A stretch of DNA of 64,000 nucleotides from Clostridia bacterium. GTDB lineage: Bacteria > Bacillota > Clostridia > Christensenellales > UBA1242. Each line of letters starts with the position of its first letter. Position 1 is the first letter of the stretch. The stretch is taken from contig JAFUPL010000030.1 of NCBI GenBank assembly GCA_017481235.1, positions 578-64,577 on the forward strand, written 5' to 3'. The notes under the pieces are model-generated. The model worked only from the letters and a program-made list of their open reading frames with translations. It was not told the origin of the DNA and did not search any database. Of this stretch, positions 28,184-63,524 are shown one piece after another. The translations under genes were made by a program, and so were the position numbers.

Positions 28184-28846
28184 TTAAGCATTAGGCACTA
28201 GGTTTAATACCTTATCACTCATTCCATTGTTAAAGTACACATTAGGCACTTTACCTACAATAACACTTTCGCAAAGTAACACTTGTTGTTTAACGTCAAT
28301 AGTTTGCTTCTTTATTGGCAAATTCATTTCAACCCTAGCATTAATGGTTAAATATATTTTATGTAAAGTGTTGTTAATGCCAACACTTATGAAGTTTGAG
28401 TCAAAACTACTGCCAATAATACCAACTGGACTAGCACTAAGTTTAATACGTTTTCCCCTGCCATTAAATAATGCAATACCTGACAATGTTCCTAACGGTA
28501 TTTGCATATACTCTTCGTCTATAATTTTAATACGTTCGTTAGCGTCTTTAATAATCTCACGCGTGATTGTATTAATCATATATTGGTTGGCGGTAATATA
28601 ATTAATTTCACCACTTTGATTGTAGTTAATACTCATAATGCTATCATAATTAATTGTTGTGTTAATTACATTGCTTACAGCCACGTTTAATGCTTGTTCA
28701 GTAATACTATTTATCTTGGCACTACAATAAGTTTTAATAATAGGAACTAACACTAACATATAATACCAAATACAAATACAAAAAAACACCACTAATATAA
28801 ATAATGGTTTAACTAAACGCTTGCGTGATGTTTTTCTCATATTCAA
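28184..28846 (-). CDS. yunB: sporulation protein YunB-like
   Basis: N-terminal TM helix, then IPLGTLSG..GRGKRIKL..VGINNTLHKIYL segments resembling the YunB family. Sits next to the spoVA genes. Confidence 0.6.
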   Translation of the reverse strand: MNMRKTSRKRLVKPLFILVVFFCICIWYYMLVLVPIIKTYCSAKINSITEQALNVAVSNVINTTINYDSIMSINYNQSGEINYITANQYMINTITREIIKDANERIKIIDEEYMQIPLGTLSGIALFNGRGKRIKLSASPVGIIGSSFDSNFISVGINNTLHKIYLTINARVEMNLPIKKQTIDVKQQVLLCESVIVGKVPNVYFNNGMSDKVLNLVPNA

Positions 28847-28874
28847 TTATATGTTAGTCAAAATACAAATATAA

Positions 28875-29252
28875 TCATTTCAAATGCTTTGTTCTACTAT
28901 TAAATATTAATCCTACTAAGAAAGCAGATACTATTGCTACGGCAATACCTCCAGCGGTGGCGGTAAGTCCTCCTTGTAGCACTCCAAGCAAACCACCCTT
29001 TTTAGCACCCTCAATAGCTCCTTTAGCAAGGGTTGCACCAAAACCTATAATAGGTACAGTTGCGCCCGCCTTTGCAAAGTCCTTAAAATATGGGTACACA
29101 CCAAATGCTTGTAGTACAACACCTAACATTAAAAATAATACCAGTATTCGCGAAGTCGTAATGCTTGTTCGTACTACTAATATTTGCGCTAAACCACAAA
29201 TTAATCCGCCTACTAAAAATGAAATAAGATAATTCATAATATTAAATTCCAT
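28875..29252 (-). CDS. spoVAE: stage V sporulation protein AE (SpoVAEB-type)
   Basis: Four-TM protein with the VPIIGFGATLAKG motif. Its ATG overlaps the spoVAD TAA (TAATG). Confidence 0.85.
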   Translation of the reverse strand: MEFNIMNYLISFLVGGLICGLAQILVVRTSITTSRILVLFLMLGVVLQAFGVYPYFKDFAKAGATVPIIGFGATLAKGAIEGAKKGGLLGVLQGGLTATAGGIAVAIVSAFLVGLIFNSRTKHLK

Positions 29253-30259
29253 TATTTACTCCTTTCAATACATACTGCATGAGCAATACCTGGTATACTA
29301 TCACCTTGTTGACTGGTAGTAGTGCTTAATAATGCACCTGTTGCGACTAATAATACCTTTTTAAAATCTCCATTAAGGAGTTTGTGCATAATATATGAAT
29401 TAAGCACGGTTGCACTACAACCACTACCACTTCCGCCCATAAACACCTTTTCTTGCTTATTGTAAATTAGATTACCACAATCGCTATAGTTTTGACCTAG
29501 TTTAATGCCTTTACGCTCTAATAAGTCTACTAGAATTTCGCTACCAAGTTTGCCTAAATCACCAGTTGCAATAAGGTCGTAGTCTTCCACTTTAGTATTA
29601 GTGCCTTTTAAGTGTGTCATAATGGTATCCATTGCGGCGGGTGCCATGCACGCGCCCATATTATTTACGTCCTTAATGCCAAAGTCAACTACTTTACCAA
29701 AAGTAGCACTTGTAATCACAGGTCCATCACCTCTAGCAGACAAAATTGTCGCTCCACCACCCGTTACTGTCCATTGAGATGTAGGTGGACGTTGATTGCC
29801 TAGTTCTAGAGGAAAGCGATATTGTCGTTCGGCACTAGAAAAGTGACTAGCAGTGGCGCAACATACCTTACTGAACACTTGCCTATCAATGAGCGTTGCC
29901 CCTAGTGCTAAACTTTCAGCCATTGTAGCACACGCGCTATATAACCCTATAAACGTTATGCCAAATTTACGTGCAGCAAATGACGAACTAACTATTTGAT
30001 TTAATAAATCTCCTCCAAGCAACACATCAATATCATTAAGTTTAAGTCCTGCGTTATCAATAGCACCAAAAATAATATGTTCTAATAGTTTTCGTTCTGC
30101 TTTTTCAAATGTATCCTCATTTAGTTTGTCATCTTGTAATTTATAACTCAAATAATCACTTATAGGACCTTTACTCTCTAGCGGTCCACCGATACTATAA
30201 CTTCCTACAATAGTGGGTTTGTTATTAAATATAACTGTTTGCTTATTTGTACTAACCAT
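29252..30259 (-). CDS. spoVAD: stage V sporulation protein AD
   Basis: 335 aa thiolase-like protein (GLYSACATMAESL, GGSGSGCSA) between spoVAC and spoVAE. Confidence 0.92.
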   Translation of the reverse strand: MVSTNKQTVIFNNKPTIVGSYSIGGPLESKGPISDYLSYKLQDDKLNEDTFEKAERKLLEHIIFGAIDNAGLKLNDIDVLLGGDLLNQIVSSSFAARKFGITFIGLYSACATMAESLALGATLIDRQVFSKVCCATASHFSSAERQYRFPLELGNQRPPTSQWTVTGGGATILSARGDGPVITSATFGKVVDFGIKDVNNMGACMAPAAMDTIMTHLKGTNTKVEDYDLIATGDLGKLGSEILVDLLERKGIKLGQNYSDCGNLIYNKQEKVFMGGSGSGCSATVLNSYIMHKLLNGDFKKVLLVATGALLSTTTSQQGDSIPGIAHAVCIERSK

Positions 30260-30284
30260 AATATTCCTTTTAATTAAATTATTA

Positions 30285-30411
30285 AAATATGAAGACGTTT
30301 CACTTATGAAGTCGTGGCATTGCCACTTATTATGGAAAAATTATATTTATCCAAAATTTAACCTTAATAAGTAACGAAGTTACGACTTAATATTTTCATA
30401 GTTTCATATTT
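30285..30411. repeat. inverted-repeat element, copy B (family A/B/E)
   Basis: Termini AAATATGAA/TTCATATTT. Both arms carry TATGAA words, GTCGT and a short GC hairpin. The 25-mer at 30287-30311 matches the reverse complement of 56613-56637 at 24/25 positions. Confidence 0.8.
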
Positions 30412-30412
30412 A

Positions 30413-30859
30413 TCATATTATTAAATATATTAGTCCTGCCGCAACACTTCCTACCACTCCAAATACAATCACAGGACCAACTATGCTAAACATCTTAACG
30501 CAAATGCCAAATATAATGCCTTCTTTTTTAAATTCCATTGAAGGACTTACAATAGCGTTGGCAAAACCTGTAATAGGAATTACTGTACCAGCACCACCAA
30601 AAGCACCTAACCAGTCAAACACACCAAAACCAGTTAAGATGGCGGTTAAAAAGATGATTGTACTTAGCATTGCTGTTCCCAACTCTGCTTCACTTAGTGT
30701 TGGCCACCAATATGCATATAAATCCAAGCAAAGTTGTCCAAAACAACAAATAAGTCCTCCTACTAAGAATGCTTTTGCCACTGAAGGAAATAATTTTGTT
30801 TTAGGTAACTTGGCATCTACATACATATTATAATTTTGATTACGCTTTTCACTATCCAT
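30413..30859 (-). CDS. spoVAC: stage V sporulation protein AC
   Basis: Membrane protein with the VIPITGFANAIVSP motif. Start set at the ATG at 30859, preceded by GGGAG; the ORF track starts at a TTG at 30931. Confidence 0.9.
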   Translation of the reverse strand: MDSEKRNQNYNMYVDAKLPKTKLFPSVAKAFLVGGLICCFGQLCLDLYAYWWPTLSEAELGTAMLSTIIFLTAILTGFGVFDWLGAFGGAGTVIPITGFANAIVSPSMEFKKEGIIFGICVKMFSIVGPVIVFGVVGSVAAGLIYLII

Positions 30860-31015
30860 ACTTATACTCCCAATATCAATAATCTTGACATAAAACAAAA
30901 TTTTAAACCTAATTTGATTAATTTTTTGCAAACTAATTTAATTCATTTAAAAATTTAATACAAGTTTTCAAATATTATAAGTATTTTTGCACATAATACA
31001 CCTAGGAGGTTAGAT

Positions 31016-45765: not shown

Positions 45766-46374
45766 TTAAACAGTTTGTTGTTCTTCTTGCTCTTTCAAGT
45801 TTAAATATTCAATATATCTTTCCAAACACAAACCACCTAAGTCTTGCATTGCCTTAGCATGCTCAACACCAACATATCTAAAATGCCATGGTTCATATTT
45901 TTTCACACCAGTTATATGTTCTAAACCTTTTGGATATCTAAGTATAAAACCAAATTCCGTAAGCGCTTCATGAGTTGTTTTTATTATATCTTTATTTGAT
46001 AATTTAGCAATTAGTTTTGAAAGCATGTTGCTAGAACGAATTCTTACATCAATTGCAAGACCCAAATGGTGTTCGCTATATCCAGGAGTAGCAACCTCAT
46101 TTTGAGCATACTCTATTCCTTTTTCCTTAACAATTTTATCAAAATATTCTTGTTGTTCCTCAACAGTTCTTCCAGCAGAATTTAATGTTAATTTAACACC
46201 CTTTTTTAGCAACTTTTTTTGTAATTTTTTAAATGCTTCATAAGTTTCAGTTTCAATAAATTCCTTGTTTTCATTCATATCCTTGTTTACATCAATTTTA
46301 CTAAACTCAAACCCTTCCTTCATGTCATCACTAAACTTATTTTCAAAATTTACTAATCTTAAATATTTATCCAT
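45766..46374 (-). CDS. M15-family D-Ala-D-Ala carboxypeptidase (VanY-like)
   Basis: SAGRTVEEQ, SEHHLGLAIDV and EPWHFRYVG metal-site motifs. Confidence 0.85.
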   Translation of the reverse strand: MDKYLRLVNFENKFSDDMKEGFEFSKIDVNKDMNENKEFIETETYEAFKKLQKKLLKKGVKLTLNSAGRTVEEQQEYFDKIVKEKGIEYAQNEVATPGYSEHHLGLAIDVRIRSSNMLSKLIAKLSNKDIIKTTHEALTEFGFILRYPKGLEHITGVKKYEPWHFRYVGVEHAKAMQDLGGLCLERYIEYLNLKEQEEQQTV

Positions 46375-52291: not shown

Positions 52292-54672
52292 ACGAAAGTT
52301 ATCGGTGCATAATCTAATGTTAAAACTTGATTGCCTACTGTAGCAAAATTTATAGTAACACATCTATTACTTTCATGCGTACTAGTATCCACAATAACAC
52401 CTTCACCAAACTTAACATGCATTACCTTTGCGCCTACTTTAACCTTAGATGTATCAATGCTTTGCTTTGATACTCCCTTGGATAGTCCCGCAATGTTTAA
52501 CCCTCCAACTCTAGCATTTCCTCCACCTAAAGCATTAGTTTTATAATTTAAATTACTATTAAAATTGCTTGATGACTTAGTATAACTAGAACTATTATTA
52601 GGATTACCATATGCACTACTAGTATAACCTTTATATTGAGGATTATTTTTTACTATATACTTATTATTTGAATAATCCCCATAGTCACTGTTGTAACTTC
52701 CCTGTTCGCTTCTTGCTGTGTATTTACCATATGGACTAGAATATTCATTACCATAATATCCACCATAACCAAACGCTTGGTCCTTAACCATATCAATTTC
52801 TCGCAAAAACCTACTCTTAATTGCTATATCGCGTTTACCATACATAAAGCGCGAACTACTACTTGTTAAATACAAATCCTTACGTGCTCTAGTTATTGCT
52901 ACATACATAAGTCTTCGCTCTTCCTCTTGTTCATCAAGTTCAGCACGATTTACTGGGAATATTTTTTCTTCCAATCCAGATATAAATACAGTGTCAAACT
53001 CTAGTCCTTTAGCGGCGTGCACTGTAGCAATTATAACTCCGTTTTTGGTGCTTTCAGTATCTATATCGCTAATAAGTGTTACGCTTTCAAGATATTCATT
53101 TAGCGTTGCATTTGGATTTGCTTCCTCATAATCCTTAATTGATTTAATAAGTGAAGTCACATTGATATACCTATCTAATTCAGTTTCTTCCTTTTGATTA
53201 AAACTTTGCAAAATATGTGCTTCATCTACAATGTAAGTTATAAGTTCATACAATCCAACTTCACTTGCTTTTTTGTCAATATCTTGAAGTAATTGTTTTA
53301 AAGGTTGAAGTTTATTACGTAGTGCTGGTTTAATATCTTCAATATCACAATTTAGTATAATATCTTTCATACTACACTTGCGCATATCGGCAAGTTCTTT
53401 TAACCTAGTAATACTAGTATCGCCAATTCCGCGTTTAGGGAAATTGATAAGTCGACTAAAACTAGTAGTATCATTTGGATTAACTATTGAAATTAAGTAT
53501 GATAAAGTGCTTTTTATTTCAGCACGTTCATAGAACTTTACACCATTATAAATTTTATGCGGTATATTATAGGCAAGCAATTTTTCTTCAAAAGGACGCG
53601 TCAAAGCATTAAGACGTAAAAGTATTGCAATATTATTAAGGTCAATACCCTGTGCTCTTTGTTGAATTATATGGCGAACCACATAATCCGCTTCATCTTG
53701 TTCGTCGCGTGCACAATAATAACTCACGTCACTACCTTGGTCATTAGTGGTATACAATTTTTTAGATAACCTATTCTTGTTGTTTTCAATTAGTTTGTTT
53801 GCTTTATCAAGAATTGCTTTGGTGCTACGATAATTTTGTTCAAGTTTAAATACTTTTACATTTTTAAAGTCTTTTGAAAACTGGAATATATTGCCGACAT
53901 TAGCACCACGCCAACTATATATAGATTGGTCCTCATCACCTACAATAAACACGTTTTGATGTTTAGCACCAAGTATCTTTACAATTTCGTATTGCAATTT
54001 ATTAGTATCTTGAAATTCGTCAATATGAATATATTGAAAACGGTCTTGCAAACTAGACCTTACATCTTCATTTTTAACTAACAACTTATAAAAATTAATC
54101 AATAGGTCATCAAAATCCATAGCATTATTTTTAAGTAGTTCGTTTTGATAAGCAAAATAACCACGTCGTACCATATCAATACCCTTAGTGTGCTTGTTAA
54201 TTTCGCAATACTCATCAATATGAATGTTATCGTTTTTAATTACACTGATTGCATGTTTAACGCGCGACTTAGTTTCGTCATCTGTTACACCCAAATCGGC
54301 AAACACTTGCTTAAACACTTTTGTTTGGTCGCTATCGGTGTATATGCTAAAATTAGGTTGATATCCTTCCAATACTGATTGATACTTACGTAGCATTCGT
54401 ACACAAAAACTATGAAACGTCGCCACTAATACAAGTGATGCATCTTCACGAATTTTGCATACACGCTCTTTCATTTCATTAGTTGCCTTATTGGTAAAAG
54501 TAATTGCTAATATCCTATAAGGGTCAACGTGAAGTTCGGTTAGAAGATATGCTATACGATATGTAAGCACTCTTGTTTTGCCACTGCCAGCACCAGCAGA
54601 AACCAAAACAGGACCTTCAGTATTAAGCACTGCCTGTAATTGTTCATTATTTAGTAAACTTGAATAATCCAT
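52282..54672 (-). CDS. pcrA: ATP-dependent DNA helicase PcrA
   Basis: UvrD-family motifs (GAGSGKT, DEFQDT, YRS, VHAAKGLEF, VAITRA). A Tyr/Gly/Ser/Asn-rich linker precedes a C-terminal Tudor-like KVGAKVMHVKFGEGVIV domain. Confidence 0.95.
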   Translation of the reverse strand: MDYSSLLNNEQLQAVLNTEGPVLVSAGAGSGKTRVLTYRIAYLLTELHVDPYRILAITFTNKATNEMKERVCKIREDASLVLVATFHSFCVRMLRKYQSVLEGYQPNFSIYTDSDQTKVFKQVFADLGVTDDETKSRVKHAISVIKNDNIHIDEYCEINKHTKGIDMVRRGYFAYQNELLKNNAMDFDDLLINFYKLLVKNEDVRSSLQDRFQYIHIDEFQDTNKLQYEIVKILGAKHQNVFIVGDEDQSIYSWRGANVGNIFQFSKDFKNVKVFKLEQNYRSTKAILDKANKLIENNKNRLSKKLYTTNDQGSDVSYYCARDEQDEADYVVRHIIQQRAQGIDLNNIAILLRLNALTRPFEEKLLAYNIPHKIYNGVKFYERAEIKSTLSYLISIVNPNDTTSFSRLINFPKRGIGDTSITRLKELADMRKCSMKDIILNCDIEDIKPALRNKLQPLKQLLQDIDKKASEVGLYELITYIVDEAHILQSFNQKEETELDRYINVTSLIKSIKDYEEANPNATLNEYLESVTLISDIDTESTKNGVIIATVHAAKGLEFDTVFISGLEEKIFPVNRAELDEQEEERRLMYVAITRARKDLYLTSSSSRFMYGKRDIAIKSRFLREIDMVKDQAFGYGGYYGNEYSSPYGKYTARSEQGSYNSDYGDYSNNKYIVKNNPQYKGYTSSAYGNPNNSSSYTKSSSNFNSNLNYKTNALGGGNARVGGLNIAGLSKGVSKQSIDTSKVKVGAKVMHVKFGEGVIVDTSTHESNRCVTINFATVGNQVLTLDYAPITFVND

Positions 54673-54692
54673 AATAACTCCATTTAAATGTC

Positions 54693-54721
54693 ATTATATC
54701 ACAAACTTAAAATTTTAACAA
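54693..54721 (-). promoter_or_regulatory. putative pcrA promoter (TTGTTA-17-TGaTATAAT)
   Basis: Extended -10 with 17-nt spacing, immediately downstream of the terminator at 54723-54746. Confidence 0.5.
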
Positions 54722-54722
54722 A

Positions 54723-54746
54723 TAAAAAAGGGCGATTTGCCCTTTA
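54723..54746 (-). terminator. intrinsic terminator
   Basis: Stem AAAGGGC/GCCCTTT followed by T6 on the minus strand. Confidence 0.8.
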
Positions 54747-54781
54747 ATAAAAATAAAATTAATTTTTTTATAAAAATATAC

Positions 54782-54895
54782 GTCATATCGAGCAGAGTGC
54801 CTACGCACGTAGTCGAGTGTATCTCCACATTTGTAAATATATTATATTTGCTAATGATTGAAATTTGTCACTTATTATCACTCGGTCAGAACGAC
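54782..54895. mobile_element. MITE-like element copy D (same terminal repeats as copy C)
   Basis: Left end GTCATATCGAGCAGAG. The reverse complement of the right end, GTCGTTCTGACCGAG, compares with copy C GTCATTCCGACTGAG. Internal AGATACACTC and TTGCTAAT words are shared with C. ATACGT is present on both flanks. Confidence 0.6.
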
Positions 54896-54920
54896 AATCC
54901 ATACGTTAAATATTAGTAAT

Positions 54921-54947
54921 AAAAAAAGATGCAACTATAATTGCACC
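54921..54947 (-). terminator. rpsU intrinsic terminator
   Basis: Stem GATGCAA/TTGCACC (one mismatch) followed by T7 on the minus strand. Confidence 0.65.
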
Positions 54948-54954
54948 TTAATTT

Positions 54955-55143
54955 TTAATATCTACTTTTTTTCATAGCGCGCTTTCTTGCTGCTTCGCTC
55001 TTTTTCTTTTTTCTAACGCTAGGCTTTTCGTATTGTTCACGTTTACGTAAATCGCCAATGATACCATCTTTTTGACATTTACGTTTAAACCGCTTTAACG
55101 CACTTTCAACAGATTCATTTTCGCCAACTTTAATTGTGCTCAT
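54955..55143 (-). CDS. rpsU: 30S ribosomal protein S21
   Basis: 62 aa basic protein with [19 protein letters not shown] and [17 protein letters not shown], typical of S21. Confidence 0.95.
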
Positions 55144-55263
55144 CTAACTCACCACCTTTCGTTTTACAAATTCTTTTATATTTTACACATCTAAAACACT
55201 TTTGTCAATAGATTTTTAAACATTTTTAAAAAAATTTAACAATTTATGCAAAAATTTTTAAAA

Positions 55264-55977
55264 TTACTTAATCATTTCCTTAAAATTTTGTAATATTTTG
55301 TTTTCGATACGTGATATTTGAACTTGGGATACACCTAAACTTGAAGCAATCTCGCTTTGCGTCTTGTCAAGATAATAACGCATAATAATCACACGTTTTT
55401 CACGTGCAGGAAGAGCATTTATCATATCTCTCAGCACAATTTTATCTACTAATTTGTCGGGCGAAAAATTATCTTGCGTGCGTTCGGCAAGACTGTCGTC
55501 TTCATCATCAAATTTATCATCAATTGATATTAATTGTGTAGAAGCTTCTAATGTCAACACCACATCTTGTGGGTCAATATTAAACTCATTTGATATTTGA
55601 TCAATACTGGGTTCAACCCCAATTTTAGACTGATACTCGGTAATATAGTTTTTAATAAGTATTGCATTATGTTTGATACTTCGTGACACTTTCACGCTTC
55701 CATCATCACGCAAAAACCGCTTAACCTCACCCGCAATCATAGGTACGGCATACGTGCTAAATTTAACATTATATTCAGCACTAAAATTATTAATTGCTTT
55801 TACAAACCCCATGCACCCTAATTGATAAAGGTCTTCGTCCTCTACTCCCTTGTTTTTATATCTACGTATAACACTTTTGATAAGTGGAGAATTTTCTGTG
55901 ATAAGTATTTCTTTTGCATTATCGTTACCGCTTTGCGCTAACTTTAATAAATTTAAAGTTTCTTCATTAGATAGCAT
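55264..55977 (-). CDS. sigF: sporulation sigma factor F
   Basis: Sigma-70 regions 2-4 (DLYQLGCMGFVKAI, region 4 TQSEIASSLGVSQVQISRIE). The ATG is 1 nt after the spoIIAB stop. Confidence 0.92.
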   Translation of the reverse strand: MLSNEETLNLLKLAQSGNDNAKEILITENSPLIKSVIRRYKNKGVEDEDLYQLGCMGFVKAINNFSAEYNVKFSTYAVPMIAGEVKRFLRDDGSVKVSRSIKHNAILIKNYITEYQSKIGVEPSIDQISNEFNIDPQDVVLTLEASTQLISIDDKFDDEDDSLAERTQDNFSPDKLVDKIVLRDMINALPAREKRVIIMRYYLDKTQSEIASSLGVSQVQISRIENKILQNFKEMIK

Positions 55978-55978
55978 G

Positions 55979-56410
55979 CTATACCGCCTGTTTGTTTTCT
56001 ATTCGCTTTGTCATCTCCACAATCAAACCTTTAGCACCATTGTGCTTTACAACCAAACTATCCATAAAACTATCCATAACCGTAAATCCCATACCACTGC
56101 GTTCCTCATCGGGCTTTGTAGTATAAAATGGTGTTAATGCCTCTTCTATATTTTCAATTCCCACGCCACTATCTTTAATGGAAATATGTATTTGGTCTTG
56201 TTCGCGACTAAGTAGCATAGTAATTTCCCCTACTTTGTTTGGATATGCATGCACCACGCAATTAGTAACCGCTTCACTTACGGCGGTTTTGATATCTCCA
56301 ATTTCATCTAGTGTTGGATTTAGTTGAAGGCAAAATGCCGATACACAAGTACGCGCAAACGCCTCATTTTCTGGTAATGATTTAAACTTTATTTCTATTT
56401 GATTTTTCAT
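55979..56410 (-). CDS. spoIIAB: anti-sigma F factor / SpoIIAA kinase SpoIIAB
   Basis: GHKL kinase motifs (EAVTNCVVHAY, DSGVGI, GMGFTVM). Start set at the ATG at 56410 (MKNQIEIKF), preceded by AGGAGATTAT; the ORF track begins at a GTG at 56446. Confidence 0.92.
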   Translation of the reverse strand: MKNQIEIKFKSLPENEAFARTCVSAFCLQLNPTLDEIGDIKTAVSEAVTNCVVHAYPNKVGEITMLLSREQDQIHISIKDSGVGIENIEEALTPFYTTKPDEERSGMGFTVMDSFMDSLVVKHNGAKGLIVEMTKRIENKQAV

Positions 56411-56446
56411 ATAATCTCCTTTTTTATTTTTTGGCATATCCGCCAC

Positions 56447-56637
56447 CTTAATCCTTTGTTATAAATGTATAATAAAACATTATATTATTAGGCATCTTAA
56501 GTATGAAACTTGCACCTATATAGCGTGACTGGCGATATGAACAATATAATACGATAACTTCCTCAATGCAAACTTGTTTGCGCTTCATAGTACACTAAGT
56601 CCTACTTCATATCTTCATAAGCGAAACGTCTTCATAT
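56447..56637. repeat. multi-hairpin element, copy E (family A/B/E), inside the spoIIA operon
   Basis: Positions 56491-56552 are colinear with copy A. Positions 56613-56637 are the reverse complement of the copy B 25-mer (24/25). There are four CTTCATA words. The element starts directly after the spoIIAA stop codon. Confidence 0.8.
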
Positions 56638-56949
56638 CTAACTAATCTTTGGCATAATATCATAAAGTCCTGCCATTTGAAATATCTTTTCTGCTTGACG
56701 TGATGGATTTATAATGTATATAGGTATGTTTCTGCTTTGCAACTTTTTGTATCGTCCCAACATCACACCTATACCCGTGCTATCCATAAAATCCAGTTGC
56801 GACAAATCAACTATAACCTTATTAAATCCCTTTTCCGTTTCAATTACTTGATCTAAATGATTTCTAACATAAGGCGCATTTGCTTCGTCTAACTCTCCTA
56901 TTAGCAAAACATATAACGAATTATTGTGTACTTTTGTTTTAATTTGCAT
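56638..56949 (-). CDS. spoIIAA: anti-anti-sigma F factor SpoIIAA (STAS domain)
   Basis: 103 aa STAS fold with the phosphorylatable Ser context DFMDSTGIGV. GGAGGGG RBS. Confidence 0.9.
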   Translation of the reverse strand: MQIKTKVHNNSLYVLLIGELDEANAPYVRNHLDQVIETEKGFNKVIVDLSQLDFMDSTGIGVMLGRYKKLQSRNIPIYIINPSRQAEKIFQMAGLYDIMPKIS

Positions 56950-56989
56950 AACCCCTCCTTGTTACAAACATTTTAGCACACATACAAAT

Positions 56990-57026
56990 AAAAAAAAGAG
57001 CAAGTCTTGTCTAAAAACTTACTCTT
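56990..57026 (-). terminator. intrinsic terminator upstream of spoIIAA
   Basis: Stem AGAGTAAGT/ACTTGCTCT (one G-U pair on the minus-strand RNA) followed by T8. Confidence 0.75.
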
Positions 57027-57042
57027 TAAGTCGAATTTTAAG

Positions 57043-57519
57043 TTATTTGTTAACGCCCCAATTTGCACTATCATACATTGAGTGTTTATGTTTATCTCTT
57101 TGTATTATAATCAATTCTCTCAACTCTTTTGCTGTTAAACTATCGTCATAATCAATGTGCTTATCCATCAAAGTTTCTATCACATAAAATCTATATGGCA
57201 TTTCATACGCCGTCCAAGTATTAATTTGATTTAAATCGCTAATAAAACGACTTGCCTCATAATACTTGCCCGTTTCTATATCCATATATAGGTCATCTCC
57301 AGCGCGAATAGCAAGTATTGATTTAATTTCCCTTTTAGGTTTTGGCATATTTTTAGTCTTTACATTTCGTTTAAGGGTTACCCTATAAACATCATCTATT
57401 ACATAAGTCAAACTATTCAGTTCTTCTTGAGTGTATTGTTTAGGTTCACTAAGTGATAGCATTTCTTCTTTGATTTCTATTTTTTTAAATCTATTTAATA
57501 TCTTTTCAATTAAAGTCAT
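57043..57519 (-). CDS. tandem paralog family member P4 (about 158 aa), function unknown
   Basis: Shares YMDIETGKYYE and LTAKELREL with P3. Start moved to the ATG at 57519 (MTLIEKIL), 2 nt after the P3 stop. Confidence 0.6.
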   Translation of the reverse strand: MTLIEKILNRFKKIEIKEEMLSLSEPKQYTQEELNSLTYVIDDVYRVTLKRNVKTKNMPKPKREIKSILAIRAGDDLYMDIETGKYYEASRFISDLNQINTWTAYEMPYRFYVIETLMDKHIDYDDSLTAKELRELIIIQRDKHKHSMYDSANWGVNK

Positions 57520-57520
57520 G

Positions 57521-58003
57521 CTATGAATTTCCTTCAAATAATTGTTTAACCTTAGTATCAAAATGATTTATATACAAGTTTCTTAACTGACGCGCTGTAA
57601 ATTGGTCATTAGGTTGCAAATTCAAACCTTTAATAGTATCGTAGCATTCATAATACAATGGATTTTCGCTTACAACATACAACTCGTTGTTAGGGTTTTG
57701 AAGTTCTTCTCCAAACAATTTCCCAAGTTCGTAATGCTTACCAGTTTCAATATCCATATACCATTCACCGCCAACACTAATCATGAGCACACCTTTTTTT
57801 ACAATACGTCTTTCCAAATCTTCGGCGGTTATTCTCTTTTTCTTTTTATGACTAATACGTGCTAATTTACATACTCTTACATAGTGCAAAGTATACTCAG
57901 CCTTACCAAGTTCCACATCGCTCCATTGCTTCCAGTCATTCTTTTCATTTGGCATTTCCACATATTTAAATTTTTTTAACATACCTTTGATTAAACTTGT
58001 CAT
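57521..58003 (-). CDS. tandem paralog family member P3 (160 aa), function unknown
   Basis: YMDIETGKHYE and FTARQLRNL motifs with an AAAGGGGA RBS. Confidence 0.6.
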   Translation of the reverse strand: MTSLIKGMLKKFKYVEMPNEKNDWKQWSDVELGKAEYTLHYVRVCKLARISHKKKKRITAEDLERRIVKKGVLMISVGGEWYMDIETGKHYELGKLFGEELQNPNNELYVVSENPLYYECYDTIKGLNLQPNDQFTARQLRNLYINHFDTKVKQLFEGNS

Positions 58004-58034
58004 AATAATCCCCTTTTAGTTATGTTACTTGACC

Positions 58035-58063
58035 ATAATACATTATTTTTAAAAATTTGTCTA
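58035..58063 (-). promoter_or_regulatory. putative promoter of P3-P4 (TAGACA-17-TATTAT)
   Basis: Read on the minus strand. Overlaps the P2 stop region. Confidence 0.4.
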
Positions 58064-58528
58064 CTAATAAAACATAGTTTGTTTTAAAAACTCTTGTTCA
58101 TTCATAATTTGCCTTAACTCACTAACGGTAAATGTTGTATCATTTTTAATACCTTTGTCATGTATTGTTTCAGCACACATTACAGTAAATTTTTCCATAA
58201 ACCTTTCTGGTAAATAGTAATCATCTTTCGTTGATTTTTTACCACAATACACTATTTCATAACACTTATCTGTTTCGATGTCTTTAAAAGTATCTAACGA
58301 TTTGCGAATTAACAAAACTGGAGTAGGATTAATCGTTTGACCATAATCACAATTTGCATTCGCTCCATTGTTTTTAAGCACTCTTTTAGCTAGATGTCCC
58401 ACATAGATGTCTTCCATGCTATATTTTGCCTTAATAATTCTTGATTGATTTGATTTTAATTGTGATTGTACTTTCATTTCATTGACTTTTTCACTAACCA
58501 CACTATCAATTATTCTTTTATAATACAT
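58064..58528 (-). CDS. tandem paralog family member P2 (about 154 aa), function unknown
   Basis: FKDIETDKCYE, DYYLPERFMEKFT and FTVSELRQI motifs. Start at the ATG at 58528, after AGGAGAAAAT. Confidence 0.6.
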   Translation of the reverse strand: MYYKRIIDSVVSEKVNEMKVQSQLKSNQSRIIKAKYSMEDIYVGHLAKRVLKNNGANANCDYGQTINPTPVLLIRKSLDTFKDIETDKCYEIVYCGKKSTKDDYYLPERFMEKFTVMCAETIHDKGIKNDTTFTVSELRQIMNEQEFLKQTMFY

Positions 58529-58549
58529 ATTTTCTCCTAATGCACATAG

Positions 58550-58578
58550 ATTATATCTTAAAAGTACCATCTTGTCAA
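58550..58578 (-). promoter_or_regulatory. consensus sigma-A promoter of P2 (TTGACA-17-TATAAT)
   Basis: Perfect hexamers and spacing, read on the minus strand. Confidence 0.7.
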
Positions 58579-58582
58579 TAGC

Positions 58583-58614
58583 AAAAAAGGAATTTATTAT
58601 AAACTCCTTTTTTT
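58583..58614 (-). terminator. terminator after P1
   Basis: Palindrome AAGGAGTTTAT/ATAAATTCCTT (one mismatch) followed by T6 on the minus strand. Confidence 0.65.
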
Positions 58615-58621
58615 AATAATA

Positions 58622-59032
58622 TTAAAATATTTTTTCTTGCCTTAGTTGTAATTCGGTTACTATTTCTCTTAATTGTTGTAGTGTTAATTTTGTATCATCT
58701 TCAATTTCCCGTTCTTCTAACAACGATTGAAAATCGCTAGTAAATTTGTGTAACCATTTTTCTGGAATATAATACGCTTCACCATCTGGAATTTCACCCA
58801 CATTCATTAAAGGATAATATTTATCATTCTCAATATCTTTAAAATACTCCATTGCCGCATATTTAAATATCAACAGCTCTGGTTCAATAATTTGTGTTAT
58901 TCCCACGCTACCATTTTTGCTAACAGTTCTTTTAGCAATACAACCAACATAAACATCATGTATATTATACTTTGCTTCACCTAACTTGGTTGTTTCAATA
59001 TTAATCATTTCATTAATCAATCGTTTTTCCAT
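58622..59032 (-). CDS. tandem paralog family member P1 (136 aa), function unknown
   Basis: FKDIENDKYYP, AYYIPEKWLHKFT and LTLQQLREI motifs with an AGGAG RBS. Confidence 0.6.
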   Translation of the reverse strand: MEKRLINEMINIETTKLGEAKYNIHDVYVGCIAKRTVSKNGSVGITQIIEPELLIFKYAAMEYFKDIENDKYYPLMNVGEIPDGEAYYIPEKWLHKFTSDFQSLLEEREIEDDTKLTLQQLREIVTELQLRQEKIF

Positions 59033-59052
59033 GTATTACTCCTACGATATAT

Positions 59053-59081
59053 AGTATACATCTAATATATTGTTTTGTCAA
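59053..59081 (-). promoter_or_regulatory. sigma-A promoter of P1 (TTGACA-17-TATACT)
   Basis: Read on the minus strand, directly after the cysS terminator. Confidence 0.65.
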
Positions 59082-59103
59082 TACATAGACATCTTTAATA
59101 TAG

Positions 59104-59140
59104 TAAAAATAGACTATAGAAATACCATAGTCTATTTTAT
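59104..59140 (-). terminator. cysS intrinsic terminator
   Basis: Stem AATAGACTAT/ATAGTCTATT (10 bp) followed by a T-run on the minus strand. Confidence 0.8.
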
Positions 59141-59188
59141 TCTTTACAATATATTGTGTATATTTATTGAATAGTACACTGTTTGTGG

Positions 59189-60598
59189 TTATAACTTTTT
59201 AATTGTATATCCATCTTTGCTATCTAGTATTTGATAACCCAAAGTAGTTATCTTATTACGCAATTCATCTGCCACGGTCCAATTTTTATTAAGTTTAGCA
59301 TTCCAGCGTGCCTCTGCCATATCCTTAACTTCTTGCGGAATGTCGTCCGCCACCACTTCCGATTTTAATAAATTAAGACCTAATACTTTATCAAATTCTT
59401 TAATTAAGTACAACTTATTTTCATCACTTATATTCGCTTTTAATACATCATACAATATGGTAATAGCACGTGAGGTATTTAAATCATCTTCTAATGCTGA
59501 TTTAAAGTTATTATATAATTCTTCAGTTTCTTTATTAATTGTTATAGCATTTAATTGTTGTTCAGTAATATTTTGCTTTAATGCAACAACTTTTTCTTTT
59601 AGTTTATCATACGCAGATTTTGCAACATCAAGACGATCAAAACTAAATACAAGAGGTTTAGCATAGTGTGACATTAAGCAGAAAAATCTATATACAAGAG
59701 GACTATATCCCTTTTCCTTTAAACTATCTACTGTTACAAATCCGCCTTCGCTTTTACTCATCTTACCATTTTCGCCATTCAAGTGCTCAACGTGGAACCA
59801 GTAATTACACCACTTATGACCTAGATATGCCTCACTTTGTGCAATTTCGTTAGTATGGTGTGGGAACTTATTATCAACTCCGCCACAATGGATATCCAAA
59901 TATTCGCCTAGATACTTGCATGAAATACCACTACATTCAATATGCCAACCTGGGTAACCTACTCCCCAAGGACTATCCCATTTAAGTTCTTGGTCAGCAA
60001 ATTTTGATTTAGTAAACCATAAGGCAAAGTCCGCTTGATTACGTTTGCCATCATCTAATTCAACGCCATCACGCACTCCTACAAGCATATCATCAGCCTT
60101 ATGATTGGTTAATGTATAATAATTATCTAATTTGCTTACGTCAAAATATACATTACCGTTTGATTGATATGCATAACCCTTATCTAGCAATACTTCTATC
60201 ATATTTATATATTCATCAACGCAACTAGTAGCAGGAACAACTATTTCAGGCCATTTGATATTTAAATTAGCACAATCTTCCTTGAATTTTTCAGTATAAA
60301 ACTTAGCAATATCCAGCACTGTCTTATTTTCACGTTTAGCACCTAGAAGCATCTTGTCTTCACCCTCGTCACTGTCGCCAGTTAAATGTCCTACGTCTGT
60401 GATATTCATACATCTAACCACATTATATCCTACAAAACGAAGTGTTTTTTCCAACACATCTTCCATAATATAACTACGAAGATTGCCAATATGTGCAAAA
60501 TGATATACTGTTGGTCCACAAGTATACATCTTAACCACACCTTCTTGTACTGGTTTAAATTCTTCAATTTTACTTGTTAAACTATTATAAAATTTCAT
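59189..60598 (-). CDS. cysS: cysteinyl-tRNA synthetase
   Basis: HIGH motif (HFAHIGN), KMSKS motif (GKMSKSEGG) and Zn-ligand Cys residues. Confidence 0.97.
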
Positions 60599-60639
60599 AT
60601 CTTACTCCTTTTTATATATGATTTTATTTAAAATTTTGC

Positions 60640-60682
60640 CTTTAAAAACAAAAATAAGTCAAGAGTCGTGTTCTCTTGACCT
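60640..60682 (-). terminator. intrinsic terminator inside the cysS 5' leader (attenuator)
   Basis: Stem GTCAAGAG/CTCTTGAC followed by TTATTTTTGTTTTT. It lies between the promoter (60780-60808) and the cysS RBS. Confidence 0.7.
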
Positions 60683-60779
60683 AATAATATTTAAATCTTG
60701 ATTGCACCACTCAAAAATGTGTACAAATAATTGTACAATTAAACTTTTAAGTTACAGCAACATTTCTTCATATATAAAT

Positions 60780-60808
60780 ATTATACCCTACTTTAATTAC
60801 AATGTCAA
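60780..60808 (-). promoter_or_regulatory. consensus sigma-A promoter of cysS (TTGACA-17-TATAAT)
   Basis: Perfect hexamers and spacing on the minus strand. About 175-nt leader. Confidence 0.7.
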
Positions 60809-60821
60809 CAAAAATTAAAAA

Positions 60822-61271
60822 TTATTTGCTAAAATTATTTTCTTGTGTATTTTCTTTAACTATTTCAGAATATTCCAATAATAGAGTTCCCATAAAAACG
60901 TGTTCTATGTTATTTATGGCTTCTTTATATTCATCAGTAAAGGTTGGACCATGTAAGTTCTTACAATCTTCACGTAAATCTACACCACTTACTCCATTAA
61001 CCATTTCTATCCACCAAGAAAGAAGTCGTGGACCTATTTTTATCTCACTTAAATATCTACTCTTTTCGACCGCAGTAAAGTTGTTTAACAATATATTCCT
61101 AATACTTATACTTGGACCAGAAAGTTTTTCCCCTATCGTTACTATGTCCAAACCTTTTGCTAAAAGTTCTTTTATTGTCAAACCTTGTACGATACCTAGT
61201 TTATAATTTCCCTCTTTATCTTTTGCCAAGCATAAAAGTTTTAAATCAACATTCTTTATTTCCTTTACCAT
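60822..61271 (-). CDS. hypothetical protein (149 aa)
   Basis: AGGAG RBS and a globular-looking composition. Preferred over the overlapping plus-strand ORF at 60802-61206. Confidence 0.55.
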   Translation of the reverse strand: MVKEIKNVDLKLLCLAKDKEGNYKLGIVQGLTIKELLAKGLDIVTIGEKLSGPSISIRNILLNNFTAVEKSRYLSEIKIGPRLLSWWIEMVNGVSGVDLREDCKNLHGPTFTDEYKEAINNIEHVFMGTLLLEYSEIVKENTQENNFSK

Positions 61272-61356
61272 GTATATCTCCTTACTTAAATAATAACATA
61301 AATTTAAGCAAAAATCAATATCTTTTGTAAATTTATCTACATATACTTTCTTATTA

Positions 61357-61381
61357 TTTGCATCTATTCGTAAAATACCAT
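61357..61381. promoter_or_regulatory. copy of TTTGCATCTATTCGTAAAATACCAT motif
   Basis: Contains the 15-mer CTATTCGTAAAATAC (61364-61378), identical to 16473-16487, and a 14-mer identical to 33354-33367. The core starts 93 nt upstream of the start codon at 61271. Confidence 0.5.
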
Positions 61382-61390
61382 TAATTATAA

Positions 61391-61419
61391 TAAAAAATAT
61401 GGTAACTTACTACCATATT
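61391..61419 (-). terminator. intrinsic terminator
   Basis: Stem ATATGGTA/TACCATAT followed by T6 on the minus strand. Confidence 0.75.
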
Positions 61420-61429
61420 TAATAAAATA

Positions 61430-61750
61430 TTATTTTGTAATAGTTAATTGTTCTTGATTTTGTACAAAAGTACACAATTCTTTATACAACGCCTCACTAA
61501 AGCGGTTGCCACTATATGGTTCATCTGCTCCAATTGAACTTATATATCTAAAAACATCTAATTGTGTTTGCCTATTATTAAACGCCTCTTGATGTTGTTC
61601 AATAAAACTTTTAGCAATGTCAATACATACATCGTTTACATATTTTTGTACACACACTCTATTAGCGCCTTTAGCAATGTAATAATCTATTAAAACCCAC
61701 ACACTTTTATCTTTTATTTCAATTAAATTTATTAATCTTTTACTATCCAT
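61430..61750 (-). CDS. hypothetical protein (106 aa)
   Basis: ORF with a weak AAGGAA RBS and an upstream TTGACT-16-TATAAT. No recognisable domain. Confidence 0.45.
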   Translation of the reverse strand: MDSKRLINLIEIKDKSVWVLIDYYIAKGANRVCVQKYVNDVCIDIAKSFIEQHQEAFNNRQTQLDVFRYISSIGADEPYSGNRFSEALYKELCTFVQNQEQLTITK

Positions 61751-61773
61751 AATTATTCCTTTTATATATTTAT

Positions 61774-61801
61774 ATTATATAATATATCTATAAAAAGTCA
61801 A
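61774..61801 (-). promoter_or_regulatory. putative promoter (TTGACT-16-TATAAT)
   Basis: Read on the minus strand, 13 nt downstream of H-element copy 4. Confidence 0.45.
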
Positions 61802-61813
61802 TACCAAATTTTT

Positions 61814-61893
61814 AACTTTTCACTCTTCATTTTTCATTTCAAAAATAATCCAACTAAGTGAAAAATGAAAAATAAAAGTGAAAAACGAAGAGT
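61814..61893. repeat. H-element copy 4: opposed heptamer arrays forming a long hairpin
   Basis: The left arm (TTTTCAC TCTTCAT TTTTCAT) pairs with the right arm (GTGAAAA ATGAAAA .. GTGAAAA ACGAAGA). The 16-position stem spans 61822-61837 and 61878-61893 with one mismatch and one G-U pair. Confidence 0.75.
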
Positions 61894-61898
61894 ATAAA

Positions 61899-61930
61899 CA
61901 AAAATCCCTATCTTACGATAAGGATTATTT
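61899..61930 (-). terminator. terminator of the six-tRNA operon
   Basis: Stem ATCCTTATC/GATAGGGAT (one mismatch) followed by TTTTTGTTT on the minus strand. Confidence 0.7.
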
Positions 61931-61935
61931 TTGTA

Positions 61936-62010
61936 TGGAGCTAGTGAAGGGAATCGAACCCCCAACCTGCTGATTACAAGTCAGCTGCTCTACCGTTGAG
62001 CCACACTAGC
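61936..62010 (-). tRNA. tRNA-Thr (anticodon TGT), CCA encoded
   Basis: Manual cloverleaf: acceptor GCTAGTG/CACTAGC, anticodon loop CTTGTAA. Confidence 0.88.
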
Positions 62011-62015
62011 ATATT

Positions 62016-62101
62016 TGGTGGGAAGAGGTGGATTCGAACCACCGAAGTCATAAGACGACGGATTTACAGTCCGTAGCATTTGGCCGCTCTGCAATCTTCC
62101 C
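62016..62101 (-). tRNA. tRNA-Tyr (anticodon GTA), class II long variable arm, CCA encoded
   Basis: Acceptor GGGAAGA/TCTTCCC, anticodon loop CTGTAAA, extra arm, T-loop GGTTCGAATCC. Confidence 0.88.
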
Positions 62102-62187
62102 ATTGGGGTTATTCGGTACTAACCCTTTGCAGATTCTCGTTTTTGAAAATCCGTTAGTGCTTTAAAATTTCGTTTCAAGGCACTTAT
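62102..62187 (-). other. 86-nt structured spacer inside the tRNA operon (three hairpins, no acceptor stem)
   Basis: Hairpins GGGTTA/TAACCC, GATT/AATC and AGTGC.TT/AAGGCACT, read directly from the sequence. The other spacers in the operon are 2-51 nt. Confidence 0.5.
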
Positions 62188-62263
62188 TGGTGCCTCGAGC
62201 CGGAATCGAACCAGCGACACAAGGATTTTCAGTCCTTTGCTCTACCGACTGAGCTATCGAGGC
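62188..62263 (-). tRNA. tRNA-Phe (anticodon GAA), CCA encoded
   Basis: Acceptor GCCTCGA/TCGAGGC, anticodon loop CTGAAAA. Confidence 0.9.
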
Positions 62264-62265
62264 AT

Positions 62266-62342
62266 TGGCGACCCGGAAGAGGCTCGAACTCTCGACCTCC
62301 AGCGTGACAGGCTGGCGCTCTAACCAACTGAGCTACCGGGCC
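62266..62342 (-). tRNA. tRNA-Asp (anticodon GTC), CCA encoded
   Basis: Acceptor GGCCCGG/CCGGGTC (one G-U pair), anticodon loop CTGTCAC. Confidence 0.9.
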
Positions 62343-62393
62343 AAGCTAAATCAGCATTATAATCTCATTTACCTACCACTTAAATAAAATAAA

Positions 62394-62470
62394 TGGTGGA
62401 CCTTCACGGACTCGAACCGCGGACCGACCGGTTATGAGCCGGTTGCTCTAACCTACTGAGCTAAAGGTCC
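62394..62470 (-). tRNA. tRNA with CAT anticodon (elongator Met or lysidine-type Ile2; not initiator)
   Basis: Acceptor GGACCTT/AAGGTCC with a paired 1:72, anticodon stem ACCGG without the GGG/CCC run, loop CTCATAA. Confidence 0.85.
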
Positions 62471-62477
62471 AAATGAG

Positions 62478-62553
62478 TGGTCGGGGTGAAGAGACTCGAA
62501 CTCCCGGCCCCATGGTCCCAAACCACGTGCGCTACCAACTGCGCTACACCCCG
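62478..62553 (-). tRNA. tRNA-Pro (anticodon TGG), CCA encoded
   Basis: Acceptor CGGGGTG/CACCCCG (C1:G72, as in bacterial tRNA-Pro), anticodon loop TTTGGGA. Confidence 0.88.
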
Positions 62554-62771: not shown

Positions 62772-63524
62772 CTAATTTTGCAAAGGTGCATTACCTTTTG
62801 TATAAAAACCTTTAAAAATTTTTCTCATAGTTTCCTTATGCTCTTCTTCCGCCTTTACCCTTTGCTTTTCGGTCATTGGAATAAATTCATCGCGGTTGTT
62901 AGTTTCAGTAATAATAGTATATGGTTCTACTAAACTTCTATTAGGTAAAAAATCCCTATAACAAGAAGGTGAAATCTTGCGTTTGTAACCACAAGTATTT
63001 TCAACACTTAATTTTGCCTTCATTGCTAATTCATAGTTTACAAGTAATGGCGTAACCACCCTTGCCACGTCTTTTTCGTCAATACTATCGCCATCAAGAG
63101 TTATATCTAGTTTTTCAAGCACTTTTTCGTCAATATCGATATTGCCTGCAAGCATATTTATAATTTTAATTAATTTAATACATTTATTTTTGTATATCTC
63201 AAATGCTTCAACCTTTAATTTATAGTCCATAGGTTTTATAGTGTATTCTTTTCTTTTTTCACTATTTACAAATTCTTCAGCAACTCTACGGCGAATAAGA
63301 CTATCTTCTAATTTATCAGCACTAATAGTACCACTAACTTCTAAATCTGGTTCAAGTTTTACACCATCTTCAATTGCCATTTGAGTTAATTGTTGTTGAA
63401 GTTCTTCCAAAGTAACATCAATTTTAGCAGTTTTACAAAACTCAACTATTTCATCAAAAGTATAGTTCCATTCTCCGCTATATTCCTTAACTGCACCAAT
63501 AATTCCGTATCTACAAGTCTTCAT
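62772..63524 (-). CDS. hypothetical protein (250 aa) downstream of spoIVA
   Basis: AAGGAG RBS and its own TTGACA-type promoter. No recognisable domain. Confidence 0.55.
   Translation of the reverse strand: MKTCRYGIIGAVKEYSGEWNYTFDEIVEFCKTAKIDVTLEELQQQLTQMAIEDGVKLEPDLEVSGTISADKLEDSLIRRRVAEEFVNSEKRKEYTIKPMDYKLKVEAFEIYKNKCIKLIKIINMLAGNIDIDEKVLEKLDITLDGDSIDEKDVARVVTPLLVNYELAMKAKLSVENTCGYKRKISPSCYRDFLPNRSLVEPYTIITETNNRDEFIPMTEKQRVKAEEEHKETMRKIFKGFYTKGNAPLQN

Follow-up and report, generated by a model that had tools for sequence, protein, structure and literature searches.

In Bacillus, Sda and the members of the Spo0E family are small, vegetatively expressed regulators of sporulation entry, which bind proteins and fold as helical hairpins of 46-85 amino acids (aa). 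In B. subtilis the genes around the spoIIA operon are arranged in the order dacF-spoIIAA-spoIIAB-sigF-spoVA; DacF is a D,D-carboxypeptidase of ~390 aa that the cell secretes. These systems, together with the immunity arrays of polymorphic toxins, are the closest described counterparts of the locus analysed here, which consists of four tandem related genes (P1 to P4) lying between cysS and spoIIA in a 64,000-nucleotide stretch of a Clostridia bacterium genome (contig JAFUPL010000030.1 of assembly GCA_017481235.1, hereafter the window). On balance, we think it somewhat probable that P1 to P4 are functional genes of an undescribed, lineage-restricted family, and that their products are soluble proteins that bind or scaffold without enzymatic activity and may form hetero-oligomers.

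The likeness of this family to Sda and the Spo0E family is an analogy drawn from general knowledge, both being small, soluble and lineage-restricted, sometimes with paralogs. There is, however, no sequence or fold similarity between them, and the proteins studied here are 130-200 aa long and beta-rich. Like dacF of B. subtilis, the family is found immediately upstream of spoIIAA, and in two relatives (L009 and L024) spoVA genes are found near sigF, but no similarity between DacF and the family was detected. Separately, a VanY-type carboxypeptidase is encoded elsewhere in the window, at 45766-46374. With the immunity arrays of polymorphic toxins the family shares, again by analogy only, its small, cytoplasmic, diverged tandem paralogs and a copy number that differs between species. 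In contrast to these arrays, it has no adjacent toxin, occupies a fixed housekeeping locus, is single-copy in some genera, lacks strain-level variation and matches no known immunity family.

The four genes and the borders of the slot that they occupy are the following.

59189-60598, minus strand: cysS, upstream border of the slot (Pfam tRNA-synt_1e, E = 2e-92)
58622-59032, minus strand: P1, 136 aa, A-type family member, acidic (isoelectric point (pI) 4.85); NCBI MBQ8522650.1, 'hypothetical protein'
58064-58528, minus strand: P2, 154 aa, B-type family member
57521-58003, minus strand: P3, 160 aa, C-type family member
57043-57519, minus strand: P4, 158 aa, D-type family member, with its ATG one base past the P3 stop
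56638-56949, minus strand: spoIIAA (STAS anti-anti-sigma), downstream border of the slot (Pfam STAS, E = 4e-23)

An initial annotation, made from the sequence alone, had described four related minus-strand open reading frames (ORFs) here, flanked by cysS and spoIIA. Our analysis bears this out: the ORFs were present at these coordinates, with cysS on one side and spoIIAA (STAS), spoIIAB and sigF on the other, and all six pairwise BLASTP comparisons were significant (P1-P2, 7e-26; P3-P4, 5e-15; P2-P4, 7e-9; P1-P3, 3e-6; P1-P4, 2e-5; P2-P3, 7e-5). P1 matched the family profile (a hidden Markov model, HMM) with E = 3e-36, and the same profile found no other members in the 64-kb window. NCBI annotates all four genes only as hypothetical proteins (IJ458_03160-03175). 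The start corrections proposed for P2 and P4 were right, as the N-termini of their orthologs agree (MYYKRII or MYKSLIN for P2, MTLIEKIL or MSLIKKIL for P4). Specifically, P2 was taken to start at 58528 because the longer ORF, starting at 58570, would enclose the -10 box of its own promoter, and because the orthologs begin at the corrected Met. The motifs that had been quoted were found in all four proteins, although the gap in 'YY[IL]PE..KFT' is of four residues and not two.

The proteins could not be assigned to any known family. Searches of the four sequences against Pfam-A, PHROGs, NCBIfam and PADLOC returned scattered matches only, all well under the curated cut-offs: the best Pfam scores were 12-13.5 bits, against gathering cut-offs of 25-26.5, the best PADLOC match had E = 0.0058, and the NCBIfam matches were noise. 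When Pfam, PHROGs and PADLOC were searched with 60 aligned members no family recurred, with no Pfam family present in more than 3/60 members and with PADLOC matches of E at least 0.0019 involving one or two members per family. The best single library matches (E of at least 0.002) differed from member to member. The best sequence-profile match in the PDB, eS27, was considered as a relative and taken as chance (E = 0.17). The claim that the proteins are unrecognised was therefore upheld for Pfam, NCBIfam, PHROGs and PADLOC as well as for PDB sequences.

Structure prediction led to the same result. AlphaFold modelled P2 (from 60 sequences) with a predicted local distance difference test score (pLDDT) of 94.0 and a predicted template modelling score (pTM) of 0.81, and P4 (from 22 sequences) with a pLDDT of 80.8 and a pTM of 0.68. 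Foldseek found no match in the PDB with E <= 0.001 for either model (best E 0.25 for P2 and 0.28 for P4, with template modelling scores (TM-scores) <= 0.25), and nothing significant in BFVD for the P4 model (best E 0.04, TM-score <= 0.3). The weak matches obtained, to trypsin-like barrels, ribosomal proteins, the cathepsin C exclusion domain and ecotin, were discarded for their TM-scores of <= 0.3. Novelty thus withstood both the profile searches and the structural comparison, as neither produced a confident family match or a significant PDB match for the P2 and P4 models. We conclude that this protein family is undescribed and cannot be filed under any described family, and that the confident P2 model (pLDDT 94), having no PDB match, represents a candidate new fold. 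What is new here is the family and its candidate fold; a new kind of biological system is not claimed from these data.

In the P2 model a long N-terminal helix (residues 2-33) precedes a core built from some nine short strands (35-113), followed by two short helices and one further strand, and then by a C-terminal helix (135-152). The signature [YF]xDIE[TS]GxxY sits in a tight hairpin of the beta-rich core, and TxxQL(R/K) caps the C-terminal helix. No hydrophobic segment or signal peptide was found in P1 to P4, whose grand average of hydropathy ranges from -0.43 to -0.70 and whose pI ranges from 4.85 (P1) to 8.9 (P3), with P2 and P3 at 8.6-8.9 and P4 neutral; all four are predicted to be soluble and cytoplasmic. 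C- and D-type members share an N-terminal helix, M(S/T)LIKxML(K/R), that is conserved and amphipathic (hydrophobic moment 0.52-0.63). Among the 60 members the conserved columns are mainly hydrophobic or aromatic; of the polar residues, just Asp83 (59/60) and Glu85 (53/60), both in the turn of the signature hairpin, are nearly invariant. We rejected the idea that DIETGK is a PD-(D/E)xK-like motif, as its spacing is too compact and its Glu and Lys are not invariant.

To place the family we searched 5.8 billion proteins with a word-indexed method, which returned 21 members, and 1.84 billion cluster representatives exhaustively with an HMMER profile, which returned 51 at E <= 0.001, including one low-complexity false match (P0049). 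Apart from this false match and two short fragments, the members found with the profile are 114-200 aa long. Word-indexed searches with broader profiles added few further proteins. No relatives were found in IMG/VR or in JGI metagenome contigs, tblastn revealed no homologs in INPHARED phages or PLSDB plasmids, and no PHROG family recurred.

The two matches in GTDB genomes were to 'Candidatus Onthoplasma sp.' (L008) and to the metagenome-assembled genome KA0021_177 (L007), published as Onthoplasma (family UBA1242, order Christensenellales), with a genome of ~0.9 Mb that contains sporulation genes. The UBA1242 are widespread uncultured gut bacteria with genomes of <1 Mb, which miss glycolytic steps and transporters, appear to be partner-dependent and unexpectedly keep sporulation genes (PMC12306168); they have also been associated with growth performance in chickens (PMC13155120). 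Among the relatives whose contigs could be identified, the family is restricted to these genome-reduced uncultured gut Christensenellales (Onthoplasma, UBA1242). Orphan families are common in uncultured lineages. A genome of about 900 genes is not expected to keep dispensable DNA, and this family is kept in every genus examined, which makes it a good entry to lineage-specific biology; in the genome studied here it is present in four copies, predicted to be strongly promoted, with no detectable similarity to anything known.

Wherever the flanks were long enough (L001-L011, L013-L016 and L024), the family occupied the same slot, between cysS and spoIIAA-spoIIAB-sigF. The content of the slot is as follows.

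1 copy: L009, L013 and L024
2 copies: L001-L003, L010 and L011
2 copies and an unrelated DivIC-like gene: L014
3 copies: L007 and L008
3 copies and a disrupted two-domain gene: L004
4 copies: the window and the conspecific contigs that span the array (L015-L017 and L019)

The survey of copy number and neighbourhood in relatives thus revealed 1 to 5 family domains per slot between species, in the same slot. No variation in the number of paralogs was seen between strains. The conspecific set comprises seven assemblies counting the window, with four copies wherever the contig reaches all four, and the six other contigs are 100% identical to it across the array. Since these six contigs are identical in the family genes, the within-species ratio of nonsynonymous to synonymous polymorphism (pN/pS) was uninformative.

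Two clades separate deeply in a neighbour-joining tree: AB, to which P1 and P2 belong, and CD/E, to which P3 and P4 belong. Ortholog groups A, B, C and D are common to the Onthoplasma-level genomes, and C-type members are also present in the distant L010 and L014. Since both deep clades are represented in L010, by one gene each, the AB/CD split is old, and gene birth and death followed it. Some genera hold a single gene in the slot; the family split early into AB and CD, and tandem duplication, fusion and loss then gave 1 to 5 copies. It arose and multiplied in a single slot adjoining spoIIA. One metagenome contains an intact protein (P0068, 291 aa) in which A-like and E-like domains are naturally fused. 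Its counterpart at L004:3989-4832 is split by a frame change, with ~48 residues unaligned, which reflects either gene decay or misassembly.

Conservation in relatives, which had been named as a check on the genes, was evident from intact orthologs across genomes in which synonymous sites are saturated. Orthologs of P1 are 54% identical (L008), those of P2 39-46% (L001, L004 and L007), those of P3 41-61% (L001, L004, L007 and L008) and those of P4 71-74% (L004 and L007). The nonsynonymous divergence (dN) of these orthologs was 0.17-0.60, with ratios to the synonymous divergence (dN/dS) of 0.12-0.52, against a dN of 0.01-0.10 and a dN/dS of 0.01-0.12 for cysS, spoIIAA, spoIIAB and sigF in the same relatives, all these ratios being rough because dS is near saturation. 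The family genes are therefore under purifying selection, and change several-fold faster than their neighbours.

The control signals of the array were also conserved. The scan for promoter-like sites covered a 12-position sigma-70-type consensus. The sites and the terminator-like hairpins are listed below.

59106-59138, minus strand: terminator-like hairpin and T-run after cysS (-15.3 kcal/mol, z = -5.4)
59053-59081, minus strand: P1 promoter-like site, TTGACA-17-TATACT (11/12)
58583-58613, minus strand: terminator-like hairpin and T-run after P1 (-12.1 kcal/mol, z = -4.4, 0/200 shuffles as good)
58550-58578, minus strand: P2 promoter-like site, TTGACA-17-TATAAT (12/12 consensus positions)
58035-58063, minus strand: P3 promoter-like site, serving P3-P4, TAGACA-17-TATTAT (10/12)
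57027-56995, minus strand: terminator-like hairpin and T-run after P4 (-14.3 kcal/mol, z = -3.4), also found in the terminator scan

The near-consensus promoters claimed for P1 and P2 were recovered with 11/12 and 12/12 positions, and the site before P3 (10/12) is additional to them. The description of the genes as individually promoted accordingly holds for P1, P2 and P3 but not for P4, which has no promoter of its own and whose ATG lies one base past the P3 stop. A terminator had also been assigned to P1; the hairpin folds at -12.1 kcal/mol and its counterpart is kept in relatives, with a homologous hairpin standing before the B-type promoter in L001 and L004. It was overlooked by the consensus scan because its stem holds only 2 G-C pairs. 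No terminator hairpin was found between P2 and P3. From the hairpins after cysS, P1 and P4 but not after P2, we predict three overlapping transcription units driven by near-consensus housekeeping-sigma promoters, namely P1 alone, P2 (with probable read-through into P3-P4) and P3-P4, the array as a whole being separated from cysS and spoIIA by terminators.

In every relative checked (L001, L004, L007, L008, L009, L010 and L014) the first family gene of the slot is preceded by a TTGACA-17-TATAAT-type site with 11-12/12 positions. The B-type genes of L001, L004, L007 and L008 also carry the conserved promoter (in L008 this gene is the second in the slot), and TAGACA-17-TA(T/A)nAT stands before every Onthoplasma-level C-type gene (L001, L004, L007 and L008). 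The promoter site is kept even in L009, L010 and L014, whose CysS is just 47-50% identical to that of the window, and the Shine-Dalgarno sequences of the family genes are conserved in relatives as well. That the promoter sites are kept in genomes whose synonymous sites are saturated argues for real promoters more strongly than their match to the consensus does, and suggests strong expression of the family genes.

How these proteins might work can be approached from the same data. Given that the near-invariant polar residues are limited to Asp83 and Glu85 of the hairpin turn, and that the family evolves fast under purifying selection, its members would be abundant non-enzymatic binding or scaffold proteins that act through protein contacts; the pattern of conserved columns likewise suggests structure or binding and not catalysis. 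They would be made in growing cells. Proteins of the AB and CD types may function jointly in hetero-oligomers, as suggested by the co-occurrence of the two types and by the single natural two-domain fusion. Our leading guess at a function, and a tentative one, is that the family prepares or modulates the sporulation or division switch, because its position next to spoIIA is constant in these reduced genomes. The more specific proposal, that the new fold serves this lineage specifically, as a part of the sigma-F switch in the forespore or of asymmetric division, with AB-CD hetero-oligomers made in vegetative cells, we regard as distinctly unlikely; if true, it would define a new class of sporulation regulator, in genome-reduced and probably partner-dependent Firmicutes that still sporulate.

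Several observations weigh against a role at this switch. The link to sporulation is one of adjacency only, and the gene order of the region is generally conserved, so that the association could be a coincidence. Moreover, strong housekeeping-type promoters and a terminator before spoIIA argue against co-regulation with spoIIA. The fixed slot itself has one exception among the loci seen: a divergent member (P0052, 187 aa, L012:202-1300, on a 1.4-kb contig) lies downstream of rpsU and not of cysS, overlapping a 183-aa ORF at its start; this ORF has no Pfam or PADLOC match. In the window, rpsU is the gene next after sigF.

Other explanations of the array differ in the features on which they draw. 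The idea that these are not real genes, being instead chance ORFs, decaying pseudogenes or prophage remnants, can appeal to their short length, AT-richness and unannotated function, and to the disrupted two-domain copy in L004, but it is refuted by conservation: orthologs remain intact in genomes with saturated synonymous sites, with a dN/dS of 0.12-0.52, Shine-Dalgarno sequences and promoters are conserved, the predicted fold is confident and no phage match was found, leaving it scarcely credible. The initial annotation had likened the array to immunity, antitoxin or decoy genes, with each diversified paralog neutralising a different toxin or phage factor. Tandem, diverged, fast-evolving paralogs with strong separate promoters, in numbers that differ between species, are what such a system would have. 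The analogy nevertheless fared poorly and we consider it very improbable, since the family keeps one fixed slot across genera (and a single copy in some genomes), has the G+C of its genome (29.6% in the array vs 30.8% in the window), has no homolog in phages, plasmids or IMG/VR and no mobile-element context, and does not vary among the seven conspecific assemblies, window included. It had already been remarked that no toxin, nuclease or secretion partner lies nearby, and we agree that none is recognisable in the flanks: no partner gene was seen, neither Pfam nor PADLOC matched the ORFs upstream of cysS, and no immunity family of PADLOC or Pfam was matched by the 60 members.

Two further roles would keep the genes functional. 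As abundant nucleic-acid-binding proteins (RNA chaperones or nucleoid-associated proteins), they could compensate for regulators lost in genome reduction. The beta-meander core with its variable Lys/Arg-rich loop (KKKKRITAEDLERRIVKK in P3 and KRNVKTKNMPKPKRE in P4), the pI of 8.6-8.9 of P2 and P3, the high expression implied by consensus promoters and the presence of ribosomal proteins among the non-significant Foldseek matches are all in line with this role. On the other hand, P1 is acidic (pI 4.85) and P4 neutral, no OB, SH3, Sm or KOW structure was matched significantly, and the basic loop is the least conserved part of the protein, making this role fairly unlikely. Alternatively, they could be lineage-specific, coat-like structural proteins of the spore. 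Coat proteins are typically small, fast-evolving, duplicated and lineage-restricted, without signal peptides, and the family likewise evolves fast, is tandemly duplicated and has no signal peptide; it also adjoins spoIIA in all genomes and lies near spoVA and yunB in some, in a lineage that retains sporulation genes despite its reduced genome. However, no richness in Cys, Tyr or Gly of the kind typical of coat cross-linking was seen, and the promoters found in the scan for sigma-70-type sites, conserved across genera, are of the housekeeping type (TTGACA-17-TATAAT), unlike those read by the mother-cell factors sigma-E or sigma-K. We therefore hold a coat role to be quite improbable, and return to soluble binding or scaffold proteins as the reading that we favour.

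The terminator after P4 is part of a longer conserved element, located as follows.

56990-57038, minus strand: 49-nucleotide (nt) noncoding element AAATTCGACTTAAAGAGTAAGTTTTTAGACAAGACTTGCTCTTTTTTTT, between P4 and spoIIAA, holding the terminator hairpin
L001:4696-4744, L004:4845-4893, L007:3432-3480 and L008:3480-3528: the same element in relatives

This element is 100% identical in five species-level lineages with a dS of about 1 or higher, and nearly identical in two distant genera in which CysS is only about 50% identical, and is far more conserved than a role as terminator requires. It holds the heptamers TTCGACT and TTAGACA, 21 nt apart, which resemble Spo0A boxes (TTCGACA). Past the element come 13-14 freely varying nt, a conserved extended -10 box and then the Shine-Dalgarno sequence of spoIIAA. 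The extended -10 box (TGnTAnAAT, window 56970-56978, minus strand) stands ~20 nt upstream of the spoIIAA start and is present in 8/8 aligned loci with no recognisable -35, suggesting an activator-dependent housekeeping-sigma promoter for spoIIA and not one of the sigma-H type, as in B. subtilis. The 49-nt element probably has two functions, ending transcription of the array and controlling a spoIIA promoter that depends on an activator.

The neighbouring genes in the window encode CysS, the STAS protein, a HATPase, a sigma factor, S21 and PcrA. Upstream of cysS there are three minus-strand ORFs without a Pfam or PADLOC match, at 60822-61271 (149 aa), 61430-61750 (106 aa) and 62772-63524 (250 aa), the first two of which are also called as genes in the conspecific contig L015. 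The 149-aa ORF was considered as a family member and found to be unrelated (hhalign probability 0.5%). Six tRNA genes (Pro, Met, Asp, Phe, Tyr and Thr) lie at 61936-62553 on the minus strand, upstream of the ORFs preceding cysS, and an Rfam search of 54600-62000 returned one tRNA and a chance miRNA match only.

The slot of L014, a distant UBA1242 genome, also contains a 322-aa coiled-coil protein (L014:7173-8141; Pfam DivIC, septum formation initiator, E = 1.6e-7) whose gene has its own perfect TTGACA-17-TATAAT promoter. In L001 (6499-11358) and L002 (2902-7590) sigF and rpsU are separated by an inserted gene for a surface-type protein of ~1600 aa (Flg_new / LRR_5), which shows that the intergenic slots around spoIIA accept lineage-specific genes. 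In L009 and L024, spoVAC-AD-AE and yunB are found close downstream of sigF, past one opposite-strand gene; in the window spoVAC, spoVAD, spoVAE and yunB lie at 28184-30931 (minus strand), ~25 kb from spoIIA, indicating that the sporulation cluster has been rearranged within UBA1242. When the spoIIA region of the window (55264-56949) was compared with L001-L014, SpoIIAA and SpoIIAB were 88-98% identical, even where CysS is 47-50% identical, the sole exception being SpoIIAA of L009 (81%). Conservation of the sigma-F module is thus unusually strong in this lineage of reduced genomes.

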